A DNA stretch of 64,000 bases from Clostridia bacterium (GCA_017453255.1 JAFTKN010000010.1:3497-67496), one strand, 5' to 3'. Counted from the first letter of the stretch, positions 1,924 through 64,000 are shown. A program made the numbers and translations. Notes: a model not told the origin generated them from the letters alone.

Positions 1924-2966
1924 AAAATAAAAGACCAGGCAAAAGCTCCGTGTCTGTTGCAGGTGTTATCGCCTTTTTTGTTTTAGTTGCAGTAATTATA
2001 CAGATAGCGATTTTAACCTATGATTTTATAGAAACGAAAACTGAAAACAATGGACTCATTGCTATATTGGTTTTGATTCTTGTTGTTATCCTTTCGACTG
2101 TTATCATTTTGTGTGACATAATTCGTAGAAAGATTATGATAGACAAGCCAGTTAAAAAGATTCTTACAGCAACCGACAAGGTCGCTAATGGCGATTTTAA
2201 TGTTGAGCTTGAAATAGAGCATACTTTAAAAAATTATAACGAATACGATTTTATTATGGAAAACTTAAATAAAATGTTTTCTGAGTTGAGAAAAAGTGAG
2301 ATATTAAAAACCGATTTTATTTCAAATGTTTCTCACGAGCTTAAAACTCCACTGTTCGTTATTCAAAGCTATGCCAAACAGCTTGAAAAGGGTGGACTTG
2401 ATAAAGAAACGGAACAAAAATATGCAAAGTCGATAGTTGAAGCGTCAAAAAGATTGAGTGAGCTAATATCCAATATTTTAAAGCTCAACAAGCTTGAGAA
2501 TCAAGATTATATAAAAGAAAAGGAAAAGGTTAATCTCGCAGAGTCTATTGCAAACACAGTAATAAATTTTGAAGAGATAATTGAATATAAGGAAATAAAT
2601 TTAGAATGTGATTTAGATGACGTATGTGTAACATCAGTACCGAGCTATTTAGAAATTGTTTGGTCGAACTTGTTATCTAATGCGATTAAATTTACCGATA
2701 AAGGTGGACATATTAGAATTTCACTAAAAACTGAAAATTCACAGGCTATAATTAAATTTATCGACACAGGGTGTGGTATTTCCAAGGAAGAAGGAAAAAG
2801 AATATTTGAAAAGTTCTATCAGGCTGAAACCTCGCATTCTAAGGAGGGTAATGGCTTAGGACTTGCATTGATTAAAAAGGTTATAGACATCTTAGGTGGA
2901 GAAATCTCTGTTGAGAGCGAGGTTGGAAGGGGTAGTACCTTTACAATTATATTGGAGGGAAATTGA
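1920..2966 (+). CDS. HAMP-domain sensor histidine kinase
   Basis: Two N-terminal TM helices, HAMP, H-box VSHELKTPL, N-box NLLSNAIKFT, G-boxes DTGCGI and GNGLGL. Confidence 0.95.
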   Translation: MKNKRPGKSSVSVAGVIAFFVLVAVIIQIAILTYDFIETKTENNGLIAILVLILVVILSTVIILCDIIRRKIMIDKPVKKILTATDKVANGDFNVELEIEHTLKNYNEYDFIMENLNKMFSELRKSEILKTDFISNVSHELKTPLFVIQSYAKQLEKGGLDKETEQKYAKSIVEASKRLSELISNILKLNKLENQDYIKEKEKVNLAESIANTVINFEEIIEYKEINLECDLDDVCVTSVPSYLEIVWSNLLSNAIKFTDKGGHIRISLKTENSQAIIKFIDTGCGISKEEGKRIFEKFYQAETSHSKEGNGLGLALIKKVIDILGGEISVESEVGRGSTFTIILEGN

Positions 2967-2967
2967 A

Positions 2968-3879
2968 TTGAAGCAAAAAAATCCGCTACACGTGTTTATA
3001 AATCCGCCAAAAGCAATTAAAATATTGACAATTTTATTGACACCGTTGCTTGTTGCGTTATCAATAGTAGTGTTGGCTACAAATTTGCAAGAAACCAATC
3101 TATTTATCTTGGCTTATTTATCTTATGGATTATCTGCTTGTTTTCTTGCGTATTCTGTTTTTCTGATAGTGAAAAATAGAAAGAAAATAAGGGAACGTGT
3201 AGCTAATTTCGTTGAAAATAACGACGTAGCATACGTGTTAGTTAAGGATTTGGGCTATCGCAGTGTATTTATTGCTTGTTTCTCGTTGCTTTTCGGTATA
3301 GTTTATTCAATTATAAATGGTGTAATGGCAGCTTTATCAATGTCAGTGTGGTATTTATCTCTTGCAATTTATTATATTGCATTAGTAATAATACGAGGCG
3401 CTATTTTGATTTATCAAAAGAAAAAGCTTCAAGGCAGAAACAATAATTTGTCTTCAATAAAAACCTATCGTAACGCTGGAATAGCCTTATTACTAATTCA
3501 TGTGGCAATTACTGTTGCAGTATTACAAATGATATTAATAAATAAATTTTTCGAGTATCCAGGCTTATTGATTTATACAGCTGCGACGTATGCATTTTTG
3601 AAAATTACTCTATCTGTAATTAATATAATTAAAGTTAAAAAGCAAAAAGATTATACGATAAAGGCACTTTTATGTATAAATTTAGCCGATGCAGTTATTT
3701 CAATTTTAGCGTTACAGACGGCAATGCTTAACACCTTTGGACAAGGTGGTAACTATACTACGCTTGCAAACTCATTAACTGGTTCAGCTGCATGCTTACT
3801 TACATTAGCGCTTGGAATATATATGATAATTAAAGGACAAAAGGAAATTAGGCAGGAGTTAAATAATGGAAAAAAATGA
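2968..3879 (+). CDS. Multi-pass membrane protein
   Basis: About 7-8 hydrophobic segments; probable TTG start at 2968 after GGAGGG. Confidence 0.7.
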   Translation: MKQKNPLHVFINPPKAIKILTILLTPLLVALSIVVLATNLQETNLFILAYLSYGLSACFLAYSVFLIVKNRKKIRERVANFVENNDVAYVLVKDLGYRSVFIACFSLLFGIVYSIINGVMAALSMSVWYLSLAIYYIALVIIRGAILIYQKKKLQGRNNNLSSIKTYRNAGIALLLIHVAITVAVLQMILINKFFEYPGLLIYTAATYAFLKITLSVINIIKVKKQKDYTIKALLCINLADAVISILALQTAMLNTFGQGGNYTTLANSLTGSAACLLTLALGIYMIIKGQKEIRQELNNGKK

Positions 3880-4267
3880 ATTTAGGTTCACCTATAAAGC
3901 ACCTACAGAGGATGAAAGACGTGAAATTGCCGACATAAGAAGGCAATATACAGCAAAAGGCACCGAAGAAACAAAGCTCGATAGATTAAGAAAGCTTGAT
4001 AATTATGTGAATAATTTTTCCGTAATTGTAAGCTTAGTTATAGGCGTAGTTGGTACTTTAATTTTTGGTACAGGCTTGTCTGCAATTCTTTTAAATTGGT
4101 CGATTGCTTTAGGAATCATTTTGTGTATTTTAGGCTTTGTAGTAGCAATTTGTGCATACCCTGTGTATATAAAAACATTAAACTACAACAAAAATAAATA
4201 TGGTGATGAAATATTAAAGCTCTCCGAAGAACTATTAAATGAAAAAAATGAGGATACTGTTGAGTAA
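3866..4267 (+). CDS. Small two-TM membrane protein (paralog of 4393..4752)
   Basis: Shares Y...EETKLxxLxxLD...GxIGxLxxGxG...YPxxxK...KxxxEIxxLSxExL with the next gene. Confidence 0.75.
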   Translation: MEKNEFRFTYKAPTEDERREIADIRRQYTAKGTEETKLDRLRKLDNYVNNFSVIVSLVIGVVGTLIFGTGLSAILLNWSIALGIILCILGFVVAICAYPVYIKTLNYNKNKYGDEILKLSEELLNEKNEDTVE

Positions 4268-57838: not shown

Positions 57839-59020
57839 ATGGCAATAAAACCCGTAACGTATCAAGGCGTTTCAAATTTCAAATCGAATTTATACGCGCT
57901 TGAAGTAAAATCAAGGTTTATCGACCAAAGTGCCGCAAACGGCTATTATAAAGGTTACGGAAACGAACTCGCGCCGACCGCGTCGAGTAACGTTATCACA
58001 ATAGGAAGTGGCGCGTTTCTCGTACAAGGTAGATTGAACGAGATTGACACGGGCGGCGAGGCGGTAACGGTAACAATACAAAACGGATATGTCGGATACG
58101 TGTGCGCTCGTATCGAAACATACCACCCCGACGACACCGAAAATTGCACCCTTGTCGTTAAAACGGGTGCGTCGCTCGGTGCAATTACCTTTACTCGCGA
58201 CGATACATACCAAAGAACGGCGGAGAGCGAAAACAAGGTGTACGAATTGCCTTTATGTTCGTTTTCTATGTCGGGCGGAAAGGTAACAAATCTCGTTAGA
58301 GTGATAACCGCTATCGAGGAAAACACCACAACGAGAGATATTGCGAATGAGGCAAAAAGCACCGCGGCAAGTGCAGTATCCACCGCAACCGCCGCGAACT
58401 CAACGGCAAACGCCGCAAAAACAACCGCCAACACCGCGGCGACAAATGCGTCAAACGCGGTATCCACCGCCAACACGGCAAAGAGTACGGCGGACGCGGC
58501 AAGCACCTCCGCGGCAAGCGCGGTATCGACCGCAAACACCGCAAAAACAACCGCCAACACCGCGGCAACAAACGCCTCAAACGCGGTAACGACCGCAAAC
58601 GCCGCAAAGACCGCCGCAACGGCGGCTCAAACCGCGGCAGAAAAGGCGCAAGCGGCGGCAGAGAACGCCGACGCGGTGTCCTACGTACACCACCTTGTTT
58701 TTAGTGGTGTAAACGGAGATACATATTACAATATTTTTTGTGATATTGTATCAAAGAGCGCAACTAAAATTACAACCGCAACGCAATTAAAGTCGCTTAT
58801 ACAATCCGTGTATCAGCACTCTTGCTCGGGCTATGTTAGTAACGCGAGCGATACGGTGGTACAAAGGTCTATACCGTTTAGTTTTTCCCCCGCGTCAAAC
58901 TCGGATACAAGATTTACGGTATTTTATCTTACTATCCCCGCGAGTGGCAACGGCTCGGTTGGTAGTCAGTTGCTTTATTATACGAGCATAACAAATATTT
59001 CCGATTTTGTGACATCGTAA
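57839..59020 (+). CDS. Tail fibre/baseplate protein with an Ala/Thr-rich stalk
   Basis: Repeats AVSTANTAKT/STA; distinct C-terminal tip domain. Confidence 0.7.
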   Translation: MAIKPVTYQGVSNFKSNLYALEVKSRFIDQSAANGYYKGYGNELAPTASSNVITIGSGAFLVQGRLNEIDTGGEAVTVTIQNGYVGYVCARIETYHPDDTENCTLVVKTGASLGAITFTRDDTYQRTAESENKVYELPLCSFSMSGGKVTNLVRVITAIEENTTTRDIANEAKSTAASAVSTATAANSTANAAKTTANTAATNASNAVSTANTAKSTADAASTSAASAVSTANTAKTTANTAATNASNAVTTANAAKTAATAAQTAAEKAQAAAENADAVSYVHHLVFSGVNGDTYYNIFCDIVSKSATKITTATQLKSLIQSVYQHSCSGYVSNASDTVVQRSIPFSFSPASNSDTRFTVFYLTIPASGNGSVGSQLLYYTSITNISDFVTS

Positions 59021-59400: not shown

Positions 59401-62400
59401 ATGATTTTGGAATTTATCGGCAACGCACCGAAAACAAAATACGTATCAATCGGAGTCAACGGCAACAATCTTGTTGACGACCTTGTGTTTATTATCGGTC
59501 GCAAGCAAGGTAAAAACGACTTGTACGAGTTTACCCCGAAAATTAAAATCACAACGTCCGAGAGGGATTTTGCCGAATACTCGGGCGACGACCTCACGGT
59601 CGAAAAAATCGAGGAGAGGGACACAATCAAGATTACATACGCCCTCCCCGAGATTGTAACAGAGCGCGGCAACGTCGATATGCTTATCGTGTTTGAAAAG
59701 GCTATCGAAGGCGGCGAGGTTAAGACGTGGCAGACTCTCCCGTTTAACATCAATTTTCCCGACGGTATCGACGAGTCGGACTCGATTATTGAAGCGTATC
59801 CGAATATCGTGCGCGAACTGAAGGCGGATACCAAAAAAGCGGTTGACGACTCCGCCTCCGCGGTATCCACCGCCAACACGGCAAAGAGTACGGCGGACGC
59901 CGCGAAAGCCGCGTCCGATAATGCAGTTGCAACCGCCAACAAGGCAAAATCTACCGCCGATAGTGTTACCGCCGCAGAGGCAAACCGCGTATCCGCAGAG
60001 AACGCAAGAGCCTCCGCAGAGGCGGCGCGCGTTACCGCCGAAAATCTCCGCTCTACCGCAGAGGGAACGAGAAAAACCAACGAGGACGCACGCAAGGCGA
60101 GCGAAACCGCCCGCGCCGACGCTGAAGGTGAACGTAAGGCGGCGGAAACCGCGAGGGCAAATGCAGAGTCCGCCCGTGCCTCCGCAGAGTCCACCCGTAA
60201 AACAAATGAAACGGCGAGAGGGACGGCGGAAACCGCAAGGGCGTCCGCAGAGTCAACGCGCGTATCGAATGAGAACACCCGCAAAAACAACGAAACGGCA
60301 AGGGGGACGGCAGAAACCGCCCGCGCCGACGCTGAAGGTAAACGTGCGGCGGCGGAAACCGCGAGGGCAAATGCAGAGTCCGCACGCGCCTCCGCAGAGT
60401 CCGCCCGTAAAACAAATGAAACGGCGAGAGGGACGGCGGAAACCGCAAGAGCCTCCGCCGAGGCGTCCCGTGTATCGGCAGAGTCCGCCCGCGTCGAGGC
60501 AGAAAATAAGCGCGTGGAGGCAGAGAACGCCCGCGCCGCTACACTTGCCGCTAAACTCGATAAAAGGAGCAACGACGGCAAGAAAACCGAGGCGTACGTT
60601 TATAACGGCGCGACGCAGAGCGCGAAGGAGGTAACAAACACCCCGACCGCCTCCGCAATCCCGACGTATAACGCAAATAACAACCTCAAAACCGACAAGC
60701 CTATCGACCCCGACGATTGTGTCCGCAAGGTCGATATTGCAAACCTTATTGAGGGTACGGACAAATACTTCGCGGCACTCCTCAACGATACCAACACAAC
60801 CGAAACGTTTAAGGCGTGGTACAACGCCGCAAACGACGGCGAAGTTACCCGTTATGCGTTACTCGAAAGGTTTTTCCGTATGCTCGCGCTTAACAACGAC
60901 CAAACGCACACGGTACGCTTTTACTCCTCCGCGGTATCCTCGGATAGCAAGGGTACGCCCCTTGATTGGCTCGCCGACAAGAAGGCGCAAGTCCTCGCAA
61001 CCGACGCGGGCGTTGTCGAAAACGCCAACTCTTGGCTTGACGCCGACGGTGTTACCCGAAAGGACGGCGAGGATTGGGCAACCGAAAACCGTATCACGTG
61101 GTACGTGCGTGCAAATGCGCTCTCGCTCGACGACGGCACAATGGACGTCCTTGCAATCGAGGGTGTGGACGATACCTTTGATATTACGGGAAATCTCGCG
61201 CCCGTTTACACCTTCCAACTCTCCCCGTGGTACAAGGAAACAGACGACGGCGAGTATCTTATCAAGTCTTGGCGTGCGAACTACGCCGAGGGATATGCAC
61301 CGTTTAACAACAACGTTGATTTTGACGGCAACCCTCGCGCCCTCACGTGGCACGCGTCCTTCGGCGGCGTAATGACCGACGACGGCACAAAGTTGACAAG
61401 TGGCGCACATCGTCGCCCGAAAAATTACACCTCCTCCACCGCGGCGTTGACGCTTGCTCGCAAGTGGAACGCAAACGAGGCGGTCGGAGCGGACGCAAAT
61501 GCAAAATGGGCGTTGTCCGAGTGGCAACACCGACACTTCAACAAAGAAAACTCGGATATTGCAAACGGTTGTTTGTACTACAATTTCCAACACAAGGTAT
61601 CCGTTGCCGAGGCGGACACAATGCGCGTTATTGTGACGGCGGCGCAGATGTCGAGTTATATTGTCGGCGCAAACGTTATCGTCGGCGACAACTCCGCAGA
61701 AAGCACACCCGACCGCGGTGTTGCGGCGGCGTACAATCTCTCAAAACACGCCGTAAAAGTCCTCTCGGTCGAAACGGTGGAAATCGACGGTGCGTCGTAC
61801 GGTGCAATCACTCTCGACCTTGACGAGCCTATCACCACCACCGCGACAACGTGGGTATCCTCCGCACCGTGGGATACGGGAGAAACCGAGAAAATCTCGG
61901 GCAATCACCTTGACGGGTCGCCCGTGTCTTTGACGTCGCAGAAATACCCGCTCCGTGTTGCGGGTATGGAGGTTTTAATCGGTGCGTACTTTATCGGCAT
62001 TGACGTCCTTTACAACGTTACCGCAAACCCCGACGGCGGTTTTAATTACTCCGTATTTGAGTGCCGCGACAGTAAGTACATCGCGGGCAGTATCAACGAA
62101 AATTACATTGATACGGGTATCCGCCTTGAAGGCGTACCGAGCGGTTGGGGATACGTGAAGGATTTTGTCAATACCAACGCTCCCGTATTATTCCCGCAGA
62201 CCCTCGGCGGCTCGTCAACGGGTTATTACAAGTCCGCCTTCTACGGGGCGACCTCCGCGGGCGTCCGCTCTCCGTGGCGTTTCGGTAGCTTGGGCTATGG
62301 TGTCACGGTTGGCGGTCTTGCTTGTGAGACTGGTCACTATGCTCCGTCGTACTCGCATTGGATCGGCGTGCCGTGGCTTACAGGAGCGGAGAAAAAGCGG

Positions 62401-62427
62401 GGTGAATGGTTAGGCGGCAACGCCTAA
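59401..62427 (+). CDS. Receptor-binding tail fibre; DGR target
   Basis: BppU-like N-terminus, heptad AETARAS stalk, C-terminal variable repeat (SPWRFG...GGLAC...W.GVPW). Confidence 0.88.
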   Translation: MILEFIGNAPKTKYVSIGVNGNNLVDDLVFIIGRKQGKNDLYEFTPKIKITTSERDFAEYSGDDLTVEKIEERDTIKITYALPEIVTERGNVDMLIVFEKAIEGGEVKTWQTLPFNINFPDGIDESDSIIEAYPNIVRELKADTKKAVDDSASAVSTANTAKSTADAAKAASDNAVATANKAKSTADSVTAAEANRVSAENARASAEAARVTAENLRSTAEGTRKTNEDARKASETARADAEGERKAAETARANAESARASAESTRKTNETARGTAETARASAESTRVSNENTRKNNETARGTAETARADAEGKRAAAETARANAESARASAESARKTNETARGTAETARASAEASRVSAESARVEAENKRVEAENARAATLAAKLDKRSNDGKKTEAYVYNGATQSAKEVTNTPTASAIPTYNANNNLKTDKPIDPDDCVRKVDIANLIEGTDKYFAALLNDTNTTETFKAWYNAANDGEVTRYALLERFFRMLALNNDQTHTVRFYSSAVSSDSKGTPLDWLADKKAQVLATDAGVVENANSWLDADGVTRKDGEDWATENRITWYVRANALSLDDGTMDVLAIEGVDDTFDITGNLAPVYTFQLSPWYKETDDGEYLIKSWRANYAEGYAPFNNNVDFDGNPRALTWHASFGGVMTDDGTKLTSGAHRRPKNYTSSTAALTLARKWNANEAVGADANAKWALSEWQHRHFNKENSDIANGCLYYNFQHKVSVAEADTMRVIVTAAQMSSYIVGANVIVGDNSAESTPDRGVAAAYNLSKHAVKVLSVETVEIDGASYGAITLDLDEPITTTATTWVSSAPWDTGETEKISGNHLDGSPVSLTSQKYPLRVAGMEVLIGAYFIGIDVLYNVTANPDGGFNYSVFECRDSKYIAGSINENYIDTGIRLEGVPSGWGYVKDFVNTNAPVLFPQTLGGSSTGYYKSAFYGATSAGVRSPWRFGSLGYGVTVGGLACETGHYAPSYSHWIGVPWLTGAEKKRGEWLGGNA
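60103..60450 (+). repeat. 210-bp-period duplication within the heptad stalk
   Basis: GAAACCGCCCGCGCCGACGCTGAAGGT... recurs at 60103 and 60313. Confidence 0.85.
62234..62381 (+). repeat. DGR variable repeat (VR)
   Basis: 148-bp match to the TR with 15 differences, all opposite TR adenines. Confidence 0.97.
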
Positions 62428-62496
62428 ACAGAGGGGCAAGACCCCTTATAATGCAAAAGCAATCTAAAATTAAATAGGGTGTTATGTTGTGGCGCG

Positions 62497-62644
62497 CCGC
62501 CTTCTACGGGACGAACTCCGCGGGCGTCCGCTCTCCGTGGCGTTTCGGTAACTTGAACAATGGTGTCACGAATGGCGGTCTTGCTTGTGAGAATGGTAAC
62601 AATGCTCCGTCGAACTCGAATTGGAACGGCGTGCCGTGGATTAC
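62497..62644 (+). ncRNA. DGR template repeat (TR), part of the DGR RNA
   Basis: AAC/AAT-rich copy of the VR (offset 263 bp), followed by a hairpin-rich spacer (~62680-62800) before the RT. Confidence 0.95.
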
Positions 62645-62855
62645 TGATTTTATTATTGACCTATAAAAGGTTATAACTTCATAACGCCCTTGCCGCAAGG
62701 CTAAAATCAAGGAAAACCGCAATCCCCGTCAAACGGGAGCGTGCGTCTTTTAGAGGCGTGCGCGGGGTTGGTAGTAATACTCCGCCTATCTGCTTTAAGA
62801 GTGGCGGTCAACCGAAAACCCTTTGTCTATAAAATCAGTAAGCGAGGTTGTATTT

Positions 62856-64000
62856 ATGAAACAAAGATACCGAGAGTTGACCGACGCGTTATGTTTTCGC
62901 GCCGTCCGCGATTGCTTTAAGGGCAAGTGGGCGCGCCGCGACGTATCAAGCGTCGTCGAGGAATATGCGGGCATATCCAAACGCGCGATACTTGCAGAGC
63001 AAGCACAAGGCGGTAAATGCGCCCTCAAAAACGAGGCTATTGTCAACATCGGATACGAGATACAAAATCGTTTAGAACGGTTACTCGACGGCGACGAAAA
63101 CGCCCTCGAACTCGACCCCGTCGTTTTTCGATACGAGAAGGACGGTATGAGTCAAAAAGTACGTAAGATTGCTTATTGTTGTATATTTCACCAAATTTTC
63201 GACCACCTTGCCGCGCTTGCGCTTATGCCGCCATTTCACGCGAAAATATTGCCGTGTCAATATGCGAGCATACCAAACCGCGGACAAACGGGGTTAAAAA
63301 AGCACGTTGTAAAAATCCTCCGCAAAAAGTCCTCAAATATCCGATATGCCAAAAAGACCGACGTTACACACGCGTACGAAACGACGATGTACTCCGTCAT
63401 TATCGAGGTTATCGAAAAAGAGATACCGTCGGCGACGTGGATAATCACGCTATTAAAGGCACTCGCGCGAATGTCGCCCGAAGGTTGCCTTATTATCGGC
63501 GGATACCTTGACGCGTGGTTGTTTAATTACCTTATGTCTTACGTCCTACGTTATGCCCTCGGACAGAGCAAGGAAAAGCGAGGCAAGAAAACGTACTTGA
63601 TAAAAGCGGCGGTATCCTTTATGGACGACTTCGGGTATTTTGGGAGTCGCGAGGCGGATATTAACCGCGATGTCCGAGCGGTCAACGCCTTTTTGGGGTG
63701 TCAAATGCAACTCGGACTCAAAGACGGAAAGAAAACCGCATTTTTGAGTTTTGAGGAGGAGAAAAAGCGACGATGTAAGCCGTCGCCCGCGGCGCGCGGT
63801 TGCCCTTATTTTGACATAGGAGGCTATCAAGTACACCGCGGATATGTAACGATACGCAAACGAATATTTTTGCGCTTGCGGCGTCAATACTTGCGTGCGG
63901 CGGCGGAAGTAAGCAACGGAGGCTCGATGTGTTTGCAACGCGCATACGCGATTATTGCGTATTACGGGTATATTAAAAACTCGCACTCAAAGCGCGTCGC
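62856..64000 (+). CDS. DGR reverse transcriptase (runs off the window)
   Basis: Manual translation from ATG 62856: KVRKIAY, QYASIPNRG, KTDVTHAY, LIIGGYLDAWLFN, FMDD (63618-63629), FDIGGY; no stop before 64000. Confidence 0.93.
   Translation, partial: MKQRYRELTDALCFRAVRDCFKGKWARRDVSSVVEEYAGISKRAILAEQAQGGKCALKNEAIVNIGYEIQNRLERLLDGDENALELDPVVFRYEKDGMSQKVRKIAYCCIFHQIFDHLAALALMPPFHAKILPCQYASIPNRGQTGLKKHVVKILRKKSSNIRYAKKTDVTHAYETTMYSVIIEVIEKEIPSATWIITLLKALARMSPEGCLIIGGYLDAWLFNYLMSYVLRYALGQSKEKRGKKTYLIKAAVSFMDDFGYFGSREADINRDVRAVNAFLGCQMQLGLKDGKKTAFLSFEEEKKRRCKPSPAARGCPYFDIGGYQVHRGYVTIRKRIFLRLRRQYLRAAAEVSNGGSMCLQRAYAIIAYYGYIKNSHSKRV

Follow-up and report, generated by a model that had tools for sequence, protein, structure and literature searches.

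The prototype diversity-generating retroelement (DGR), that of phage BPP-1, is arranged as mtd-avd-TR-brt (TR, template repeat), and mechanistic and structural work on DGRs has all been carried out on the pair formed by its reverse transcriptase (RT), bRT, and the accessory protein Avd. A 'cPRT Stop' duplex of the BPP-1 RNA has been predicted in 207 Avd-containing DGRs (Handa et al., bioRxiv 10.1101/2023.10.23.563531). Avd co-occurs with 62% of DGR RTs according to Sharifi and Ye (PMC8934634), and the share of DGRs without it has been put at 26-38% (PMC5758913, PMC8934634); Wu et al. (2018) placed 29% of DGRs in an 'Architecture A', described a 'Lineage 3' that lacks avd and suggested an Avd-independent mechanism (PMC5758913). 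How a DGR functions without Avd has been a question since 2018, and no experimental answer was found in the literature searched. Among the compact phage DGRs without Avd, which Wu et al. (2018) termed 'Architecture A1', are those of the Butyrivibrio phages Arawn and Idris, the Faecalibacterium phage FP_Epona and the Bacteroides Hankyphage p00. Here we analyzed a DGR in a 64,000-nt stretch of DNA (the window; contig C31:3497-67496) from the 1.76-Mb genome of Clostridia bacterium GCA_017453255.1. Like the four phage elements, it shows the order target gene, variable repeat (VR), TR and RT between tail genes and a lysis cassette, with no annotated avd, and is found among gut or rumen Firmicutes or Bacteroides hosts. 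We consider it highly probable that this is a functional DGR of a ~34-kb prophage, with an RT of a derived subclade of gut Clostridia phages that bears IGxxxDA in place of the [I/V/L]GxxxSQ signature, and with neither Avd nor a conserved accessory gene. Avd-less DGRs, variants of the SQ dipeptide and the architecture class are known already; the RT subclade is apparently undescribed, and the evidence of recent activity, the size and host range of the clade and its place in the tree, the succession of steps by which SQ was replaced, the model of the DGR RNA, the hairpin at the stop codon and the metatranscriptome contigs confined to the TR and spacer are new here.

The VR and TR were recovered by a repeat finder as two direct copies of 148 nt, 90% identical, at 62234-62381 and 62497-62644 (all features of the cassette are on the + strand). 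Base-by-base comparison bore out the 15 differences that the initial annotation had reported, all 15 at TR adenines, a pattern that the base composition of the TR makes impossible by chance. Because every mismatch falls at an adenine of the RT-proximal copy, this copy is the TR and the distal copy is the VR; the compact target-VR-TR-RT layout that had been annotated is supported. Fifteen of the 28 TR adenines are replaced in the VR, by five G, five C and five T, always at the first or second base of a codon in the target open reading frame (ORF; 59401-62427), in which the VR encodes approximately residues 945-993 and leaves 46 nt up to the last base of the stop codon. The TR offers 16 variable codons (11 AAY and 5 other A-containing codons), none of which can become a stop, so that ~1e16 proteins are reachable by mutagenesis of TR adenines. 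At the VR 3' end (62365-62381), a GC-rich block common to VR and TR, GGCGTGCCGTGG (62365-62376), is followed by a fixed difference at 62377, where all VRs that accompany an identical RT have C and the TR (at 62640) has A; the variable sites stop at 62364, with none further 3'. By analogy with BPP-1 (PMC3240598), a GC-rich block between the last variable site and the fixed difference is the arrangement expected of an IMH/IMH* pair (IMH, initiation of mutagenic homing), and we regard this end as IMH-like. The locus shares with BPP-1 a target that is the C-terminus of a tail fibre, a VR at the 3' end of the gene, AAY-rich TR codons, A-specific substitutions and a GC-rich VR 3' end with a hairpin past it, likewise GC-rich, whose loop has 4 nt. 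Read as coding sequence, the TR forms an open frame of 60 aa (62484-62666, from ATG; MLWRAAFYGTNSAG...), which gene callers have called as a protein on several contigs with related copies (L121, L122 and L125); it is almost certainly just the template copy of the VR coding sequence.

The RT begins with an ATG at 62856, as previously annotated, and runs through the end of the window at 64000 to the equivalent of 64112, 112 nt beyond it; on the genome contig the ORF is complete, encodes 418 aa and contains no frameshift. In Pfam and NCBIfam the protein gave no more than two sub-threshold matches, to RVT_1 of Pfam (E 0.007) and to Drt5 (E 0.035), and it matches phrog_1423 ('reverse transcriptase') at 5.7e-29; pipelines that require an RVT_1 match would thus miss part of this family. 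An AlphaFold (AF2) model built from 89 sequences had a mean predicted local distance difference test score (pLDDT) of 95.5 and a predicted template-modelling score (pTM) of 0.91. Its top fold match in the PDB was Bordetella bRT in the DGR ribonucleoprotein (8ub7_A; E 7.6e-12, template-modelling score (TM) 0.79-0.81 on target), which makes bRT (TM 0.79) the closest fold, and group-II-like and group II intron RTs came next. By sequence, bRT was the sole PDB match, and the phage relatives recovered by tblastn were all DGR RTs. A defence RT (DRT, retron or Abi) is ruled out by the A-specific TR/VR differences together with the bRT-like fold.

The invariant residues of the RT are K101, R103, D169, I214-G215, N224 and D257-D258. 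Its motifs were aligned to those of bRT and of four further RTs (Arawn, FP_Epona, Hankyphage and ANMV-1). In motif B it has L-I-I-G-G-Y-L-D-A-W-L-F-N where these show [LI]-P-[LI]-G-x-x-x-S-Q-W-F-A-N, so that in I214-G215-G-Y-L-D219-A220 the I and G of the signature are kept and SQ has become DA. The initial annotation had seen an unusual RT subtype in FMDD and in LIIGGYLDAWLFN at the SQ region; both are present, and the second stands as the real peculiarity, [I]GxxxDA replacing [I/V/L]GxxxSQ, whereas FMDD is a trivial Y-to-F variant and not a family trait (as motif C, family members have F/Y/H-MDD). Adenine mutagenesis by bRT is promoted by its Ile 181 and Arg 74 (PMC7826257), and their equivalents, I214 and R103, are retained. 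The SQ motif is a signature and not a requirement, because ~10% of working DGRs are altered at this site (PMC3521204) and the bRT substitution Q187P left misincorporation unchanged (PMC7826257). Schillinger et al. (2012) listed the variants SP, SH, NQ, PA, AQ and VQ in 15 of 155 DGRs (PMC3521204), and as in those elements the altered dipeptide here accompanies VR changes that are still adenine-specific; that list contains neither DA nor EA, and in the present family the change defines a populous clade with SA/ST intermediates.

Compared with bRT, to which it is just 17-19% identical, the RT of the window is 90 aa longer and has DA for SQ; it also carries additional helical elements at both termini (an insert at approximately residues 33-60 and a C-terminal helix), a basic loop that follows motif B and a further insert that separates motif D from motif E. 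The RTs of the Avd-less cultured phages are 21-24% identical to it and differ from it in that they carry the canonical [LI]GxxxSQ, give a normal RVT_1 match and cluster with bRT. A second RT-like sequence of the host genome (C13:697-1172, - strand) consists of two adjacent RVT_1 pieces (model positions 5-88 and 129-205) near a contig end; it looks broken or split and is perhaps a group II intron remnant.

To place the RT we draw on 182 relatives from a search of 5.8 billion proteins, on pattern scans that found 179 viral contigs in IMG/VR and 27 species genomes in GTDB, and on clusters among 1.84 billion cluster representatives (53 at E <= 1e-30 and 247 at E <= 1e-10). Every lineage named in the titles of the GTDB genomes belongs to the Clostridia, and the family spans phages of several Clostridia families; three of the genomes are of cultured isolates, whose prophages carry the family (Hominifimenecus microfluidus CLA-AA-H215, Fusicatenibacter faecihominis CLA-AA-H277 and Coprococcus intestinihominis CLA-AA-H190). 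At 85 of 107 fetched loci there is an A-biased repeat pair (A in the RT-proximal copy accounting for 80% or more of the mismatches) in the layout VR, ~110 nt, TR, ~205 nt, RT, and several of the other 22 loci lie on contigs without upstream DNA; since this layout is shared so widely, the RT family as a whole is a DGR family.

The dipeptide at the SQ site changes with distance from the RT of the window: it is DA or EA in relatives that are at least 36% identical, ST, SS or SA in those of approximately 30-35% identity and mostly SQ in less identical ones. The initial annotation had called for the RT to be placed in a DGR phylogeny, and in the maximum-likelihood tree the DA/EA RTs (24 rows) formed one clade, with a support of 99% in the Shimodaira-Hasegawa approximate likelihood-ratio test (SH-aLRT), nested among SQ-bearing RTs: the clade was sister to a mainly ST/SS/SC group and lay within SA-bearing and then SQ-bearing RTs, while bRT and the cultured-phage RTs were placed elsewhere. 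The succession suggests that the dipeptide changed in the order SQ, SA/ST, DA. The lineage just below the DA clade includes an SQ-bearing RT (P0157, contig L134) in a compact VR-TR-RT layout, with 14 of 14 mismatches at TR adenines and a VR-TR gap of only ~200 nt; because this SQ-bearing element is already compact, the Avd-less layout appears to predate the loss of SQ. In the ST-motif sister group, the RT P0143 (L131, a Logan contig of 4557 nt) occupies 2700-3962, 73 nt after a 602-aa gene, and no A-biased repeat is present on this 4.5-kb contig; this lineage may keep its TR and VR at another site or may fall outside the DGRs altogether.

We addressed the activity of the element by comparing VRs between samples, from contigs. 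Independent gut metagenomes yielded at least 18 contigs that encode an identical RT protein, and a cassette alignment of 961 nt was made with nine related copies, eight of which span the whole alignment. The VRs of these copies differed from that of the window at 17-22 positions, 15-22 of them at TR adenines. The two closest copies, L118 and L121, had one difference in 813 nt outside the VR and 18 inside it, 18/18 at TR adenines, and across the closest copies overall 1-3 differences outside the VR stood against 18-22 inside, nearly all at TR adenines. Among copies with the identical RT, the TR was invariant save for two single-base alleles; that of L122 and L125 had gained an A at 62528, and the matching VR site carries G. 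The Logan contigs gave a similar picture: two runs that match the window exactly showed one VR each, and two other runs showed ~20 differences in the VR and almost none anywhere else. Ordinary recombination between tail-fibre alleles as the source of this diversity is ruled out by its restriction to TR-A positions. Thus, we concluded that the DGR has been active recently in nature, and a dead element is excluded by the turnover of the VR between samples beside an identical RT and TR. The past mutagenic retrohoming proposed in the initial annotation is backed by the same A-biased differences, and the inactive state that it had described, a truncated RT with a monomorphic VR, does not correspond to what was found, as the RT is complete and the VR varies between samples.

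The TR is embedded in a structure that is conserved at the RNA level. The strand GGGTGTTATGTTGT (62477-62490) pairs with ACTTCATAACGCCC (62676-62689) in a TR-flanking duplex that would close the TR into a loop. Across 52 loci, cognate strands paired with a mean of -24.4 kcal/mol, compared with -16.4 kcal/mol when strands were swapped between loci, and the duplex spans 14-15 bp with many compensatory changes; it is analogous to the 'cPRT Stop' duplex of BPP-1, in which a long-range RNA duplex likewise flanks the TR and a structured spacer likewise lies upstream of the RT. Directly 3' of the TR, aligned spacers keep a hairpin of variable sequence (GACCT-ATAAA-AGGTT in the window, 62658-62672), which is positionally analogous to the Avd-binding stem-loop of BPP-1. 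The core of the TR-RT spacer (62688-62822) comprises helices P2 (62688-62700), P3 (62723-62738), P4 (62739-62763) and a long-range helix P5 (62764-62768 with 62818-62822) that encloses P5a and P5b, and its single-stranded motifs AAAAUCA (62703), GUAGUAA (62771) and AACCGAAA (62810) are nearly invariant. RNAalifold predicted these six helices, 28 pairs in all, from 32 diverse sequences, with double (compensatory) changes at 26 of the 28 pairs; 90.3% of cells were paired, compared with 66.1% in shuffles, and double-change cells numbered 250, compared with 84. When the pairs were slid out of register, only 32-46% were paired. No Rfam family matched 62200-63000 (E up to 5), and the spacer has no sequence similarity to that of BPP-1. 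Judged by this covariation, the region around the TR, including the flanking duplex, is a new structured RNA of ~350 nt.

RNA-derived contigs from four gut metatranscriptome-type runs covered 62434-62787, 62497-62677, 62572-62835 and 62559-62868. Over the last 20 kb of the window, in which much of the prophage lies, two of these runs gave no other pieces, one gave two short ones and the fourth covered many genes; the contigs hint at an abundant, stable RNA over the TR and spacer, perhaps one that is made during lysogeny.

The accessory gene content of the cassette was then considered. The initial annotation had noted that no Avd gene lies between target and RT, and this holds, the only ORF there being the 60-aa TR frame. 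It had also pointed to the DNA past 64000 as a place for avd or other accessory genes; by Pfam, no Avd (PF05635) match was found in the prophage, and none of the accessory domains Avd, HRDC, MSL and CH1 in the neighbouring genes. The 38 viral records that carry this RT, 27 of them at least 90% complete, contained no Avd above cut-off, and clustering of the ORFs in the 2.5 kb that follow the RT and the 3 kb that precede the target revealed no gene shared family-wide. The recurring neighbours of the cassette are a GH25-type lysin, a holin and tail proteins. An acidic 140-aa ORF, without Pfam or PHROG match, overlaps the RT stop codon and is present at 24 of 102 loci. An N-terminal helical extension of the RT as a clade-specific fused Avd was rejected, as SQ-bearing relatives have an N-terminus of similar length. 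On this sequence evidence, the locus is best read as a cassette without a dedicated accessory protein.

Several observations weigh against an active DGR that does without such a protein. The RNA-derived contigs have a depth of 2-4, are strandless and may stem from carried-over DNA. In the likely source sample, the contigs show a monomorphic VR (contigs drop minor variants), and the support for activity comes from between samples and not from within one population. The VR-bearing domain of the target gave no assignable fold, the AF2 model of its C-terminal 330 aa being weak (mean pLDDT 68, below 50 in the VR part) and Foldseek returning nothing at E <= 0.001. Avd proteins are poorly conserved, and a divergent helper could escape Pfam. 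Finally, the host genome contains two stand-alone PF05635 (23S_rRNA_IVP) genes above cut-off, C12:13821-14123 (+) and C25:77013-77312 (-), which encode four-helix-bundle proteins; neither contig has an RVT_1 match.

The last two points bear on the alternative that the DGR is active but not self-sufficient, with a helper supplied in trans by a host Avd-family protein or by an unrecognised phage protein such as the 140-aa ORF. Avd is essential in BPP-1 (PMC5758913), and the 140-aa ORF, which recurs among the loci as described, is translationally coupled to the RT. However, this ORF is acidic, belongs to no recognised family and is absent from approximately three-quarters of loci, and not one of the 38 viral records with this RT carries Avd above cut-off. 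Moreover, Wu et al. (2018) found no remote avd in the genomes of avd-less cassettes (PMC5758913), and the occurrence of the family in phages of several Clostridia families makes reliance on the protein of one host unlikely. We therefore regard a trans-acting helper as improbable. Far less probable still is a decayed relic whose VR/TR differences record ancient activity and which no longer mobilises: it would fit the monomorphic VR that contigs show in the two runs closest to the window and the two mismatches of the TR-flanking duplex of the window relative to close relatives, but the RT ORF is intact and identical in the contigs from different samples, the VRs of those contigs all differ mutually at TR-A sites between nearly identical flanks, the catalytic residues are all conserved, and contigs lose minor variants, so that monomorphic ones say little about a population.

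A functional DGR without a dedicated accessory protein could operate as follows. A non-coding RNA (ncRNA) of ~350-400 nt would be transcribed from just downstream of the tail-fibre gene and would hold the TR (62497-62644), looped by the 14-bp flanking duplex and followed by the multi-helix spacer. The 418-aa RT would bind this ncRNA and copy the TR into cDNA, perhaps self-primed on the spacer as the BPP-1 model suggests, with misincorporation opposite adenines. The cDNA would then take the place of the VR (62234-62381) in the 3'-terminal part of the tail-fibre gene, with the GC-rich IMH-like end and a tetraloop hairpin over the stop codon as guides, and up to ~1e16 variants of a receptor-binding tip could result. 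We tentatively propose that the clade represents a minimal two-component DGR composed of the RT and the ~350-nt RNA, in which the RNA scaffold (duplex and six helices) and the insertions of the RT replace Avd and adenine mutagenesis proceeds without SQ; independence from any accessory factor is, by comparison with BPP-1, a plausible extension of the absence of Avd.

If the two-component proposal is true, the clade would serve engineering as a compact diversifier and would amount to a natural experiment in what makes a DGR RT adenine-mutagenic. Stepwise loss of SQ with A-specificity kept implies that fewer residues can matter for adenine mutagenesis. The clade is also a tractable Avd-less test case, being abundant in gut phages, active in nature and present in prophages of cultured isolates, with an RT that is modelled with high confidence and a cognate RNA whose structure is derivable from covariation.

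Two hairpins follow the VR. Hairpin A (TTAGGCG-GCAA-CGCCTAA, 62410-62427) starts 28 nt after the VR end and spans the last codons and the TAA stop with a 7-bp GC-rich stem and a GCAA loop. Most related loci have a counterpart with an 8-bp stem and a 4-nt loop (mostly GTAA/GCAA) 23-30 nt past the VR, and the stems differ in sequence with pairing kept, that is, they covary. Target hairpins of phage DGRs have a GC-rich stem of 7-10 bp and a 4-nt loop and lie 4-34 bp from the VR (Guo et al. 2011, PMC3240598); hairpin A agrees with this description in stem, loop size and distance, and its loop is GYAA (GNRA-type), not the GRNA of that study. By this analogy, hairpin A is a candidate target-recognition hairpin or cruciform. 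The hairpin noted in the initial annotation (62432-62446) is present and its stem is conserved, but the more canonical one at the stop codon had been missed. Extended to GAGGGG-CAAGA-CCCCTT (62431-62447), this hairpin B lies directly after hairpin A, and its stem GAGGGG...CCCCTC is conserved in sequence in most related loci, with a variable loop; it is a candidate for the terminator of the tail-fibre mRNA or for part of the promoter or leader of the DGR RNA. A promoter-like site, TAAACA-16 nt-TATAAT (62425-62452), matches the consensus at 10 of 12 positions and has hairpin B in its spacer, and related loci often show a TATAAT-like box past hairpin B. This site could possibly be the promoter of the DGR RNA, a weak assignment since one of the RNA-derived contigs already begins at 62434, ahead of the predicted start site.

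The target of the DGR is a 1008-aa tail-fibre protein (59401-62427) that matches phrog_17147 at 1.4e-91 as well as several tail and tail-fibre PHROGs, and has no Pfam match. It consists of a long Ala-rich heptad-repeat stalk and a C-terminal domain of ~330 aa that bears the VR; this domain is conserved in alignment across the RT family. Unlike the BPP-1 target it is not recognisable as Mtd or C-type lectin, and it may present the VR on a cryptic C-type lectin fold or on another scaffold. The family consensus of its VR part is KSAFxGxxSAGVRxPWRFGxLxxGxxGGLACExGxxAPSxSxWxGxPxLxGxxKKRGEW. Most family members have a target of ~500-600 aa without the long stalk. In the window, both the tail-fibre gene at 57839-59020 and the DGR target contain long periodic repeats of 21/42/63 nt (58300-58700 and 59850-60530), which encode Ala-rich heptad-like stalks (e.g., ...SAESARASAESTRKTNETARGTAETAR...), and a 210-nt tandem duplication was found within the stalk repeats of the target (60073-60492).

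The cassette forms the right-hand end of an island of ~34 kb (window ~32500-66500) with ~50% GC in a host genome of ~35% GC, an unusually large gap for a temperate phage. Upstream of the cassette are a Dit-type distal tail protein and tail-fibre-like proteins; downstream of the RT, the 140-aa ORF is followed by a holin (phrog_13712) and more small genes, and then by low-GC host DNA. The island is a temperate siphophage-like prophage whose tail fibre is the DGR target. In other samples, copies that bear the identical RT adjoin different host genes, RecR/YbaB in L116, and in the L117 and L120 copies the phage end carries a large serine recombinase. The low-GC host DNA to the right of the prophage (L002 5282-10622, corresponding to C31 70281-75621) contains defence-island-like genes, which encode a CHAT-domain protein of 387 aa, a 451-aa protein and an AAA_15/AAA_21 ATPase of 557 aa.

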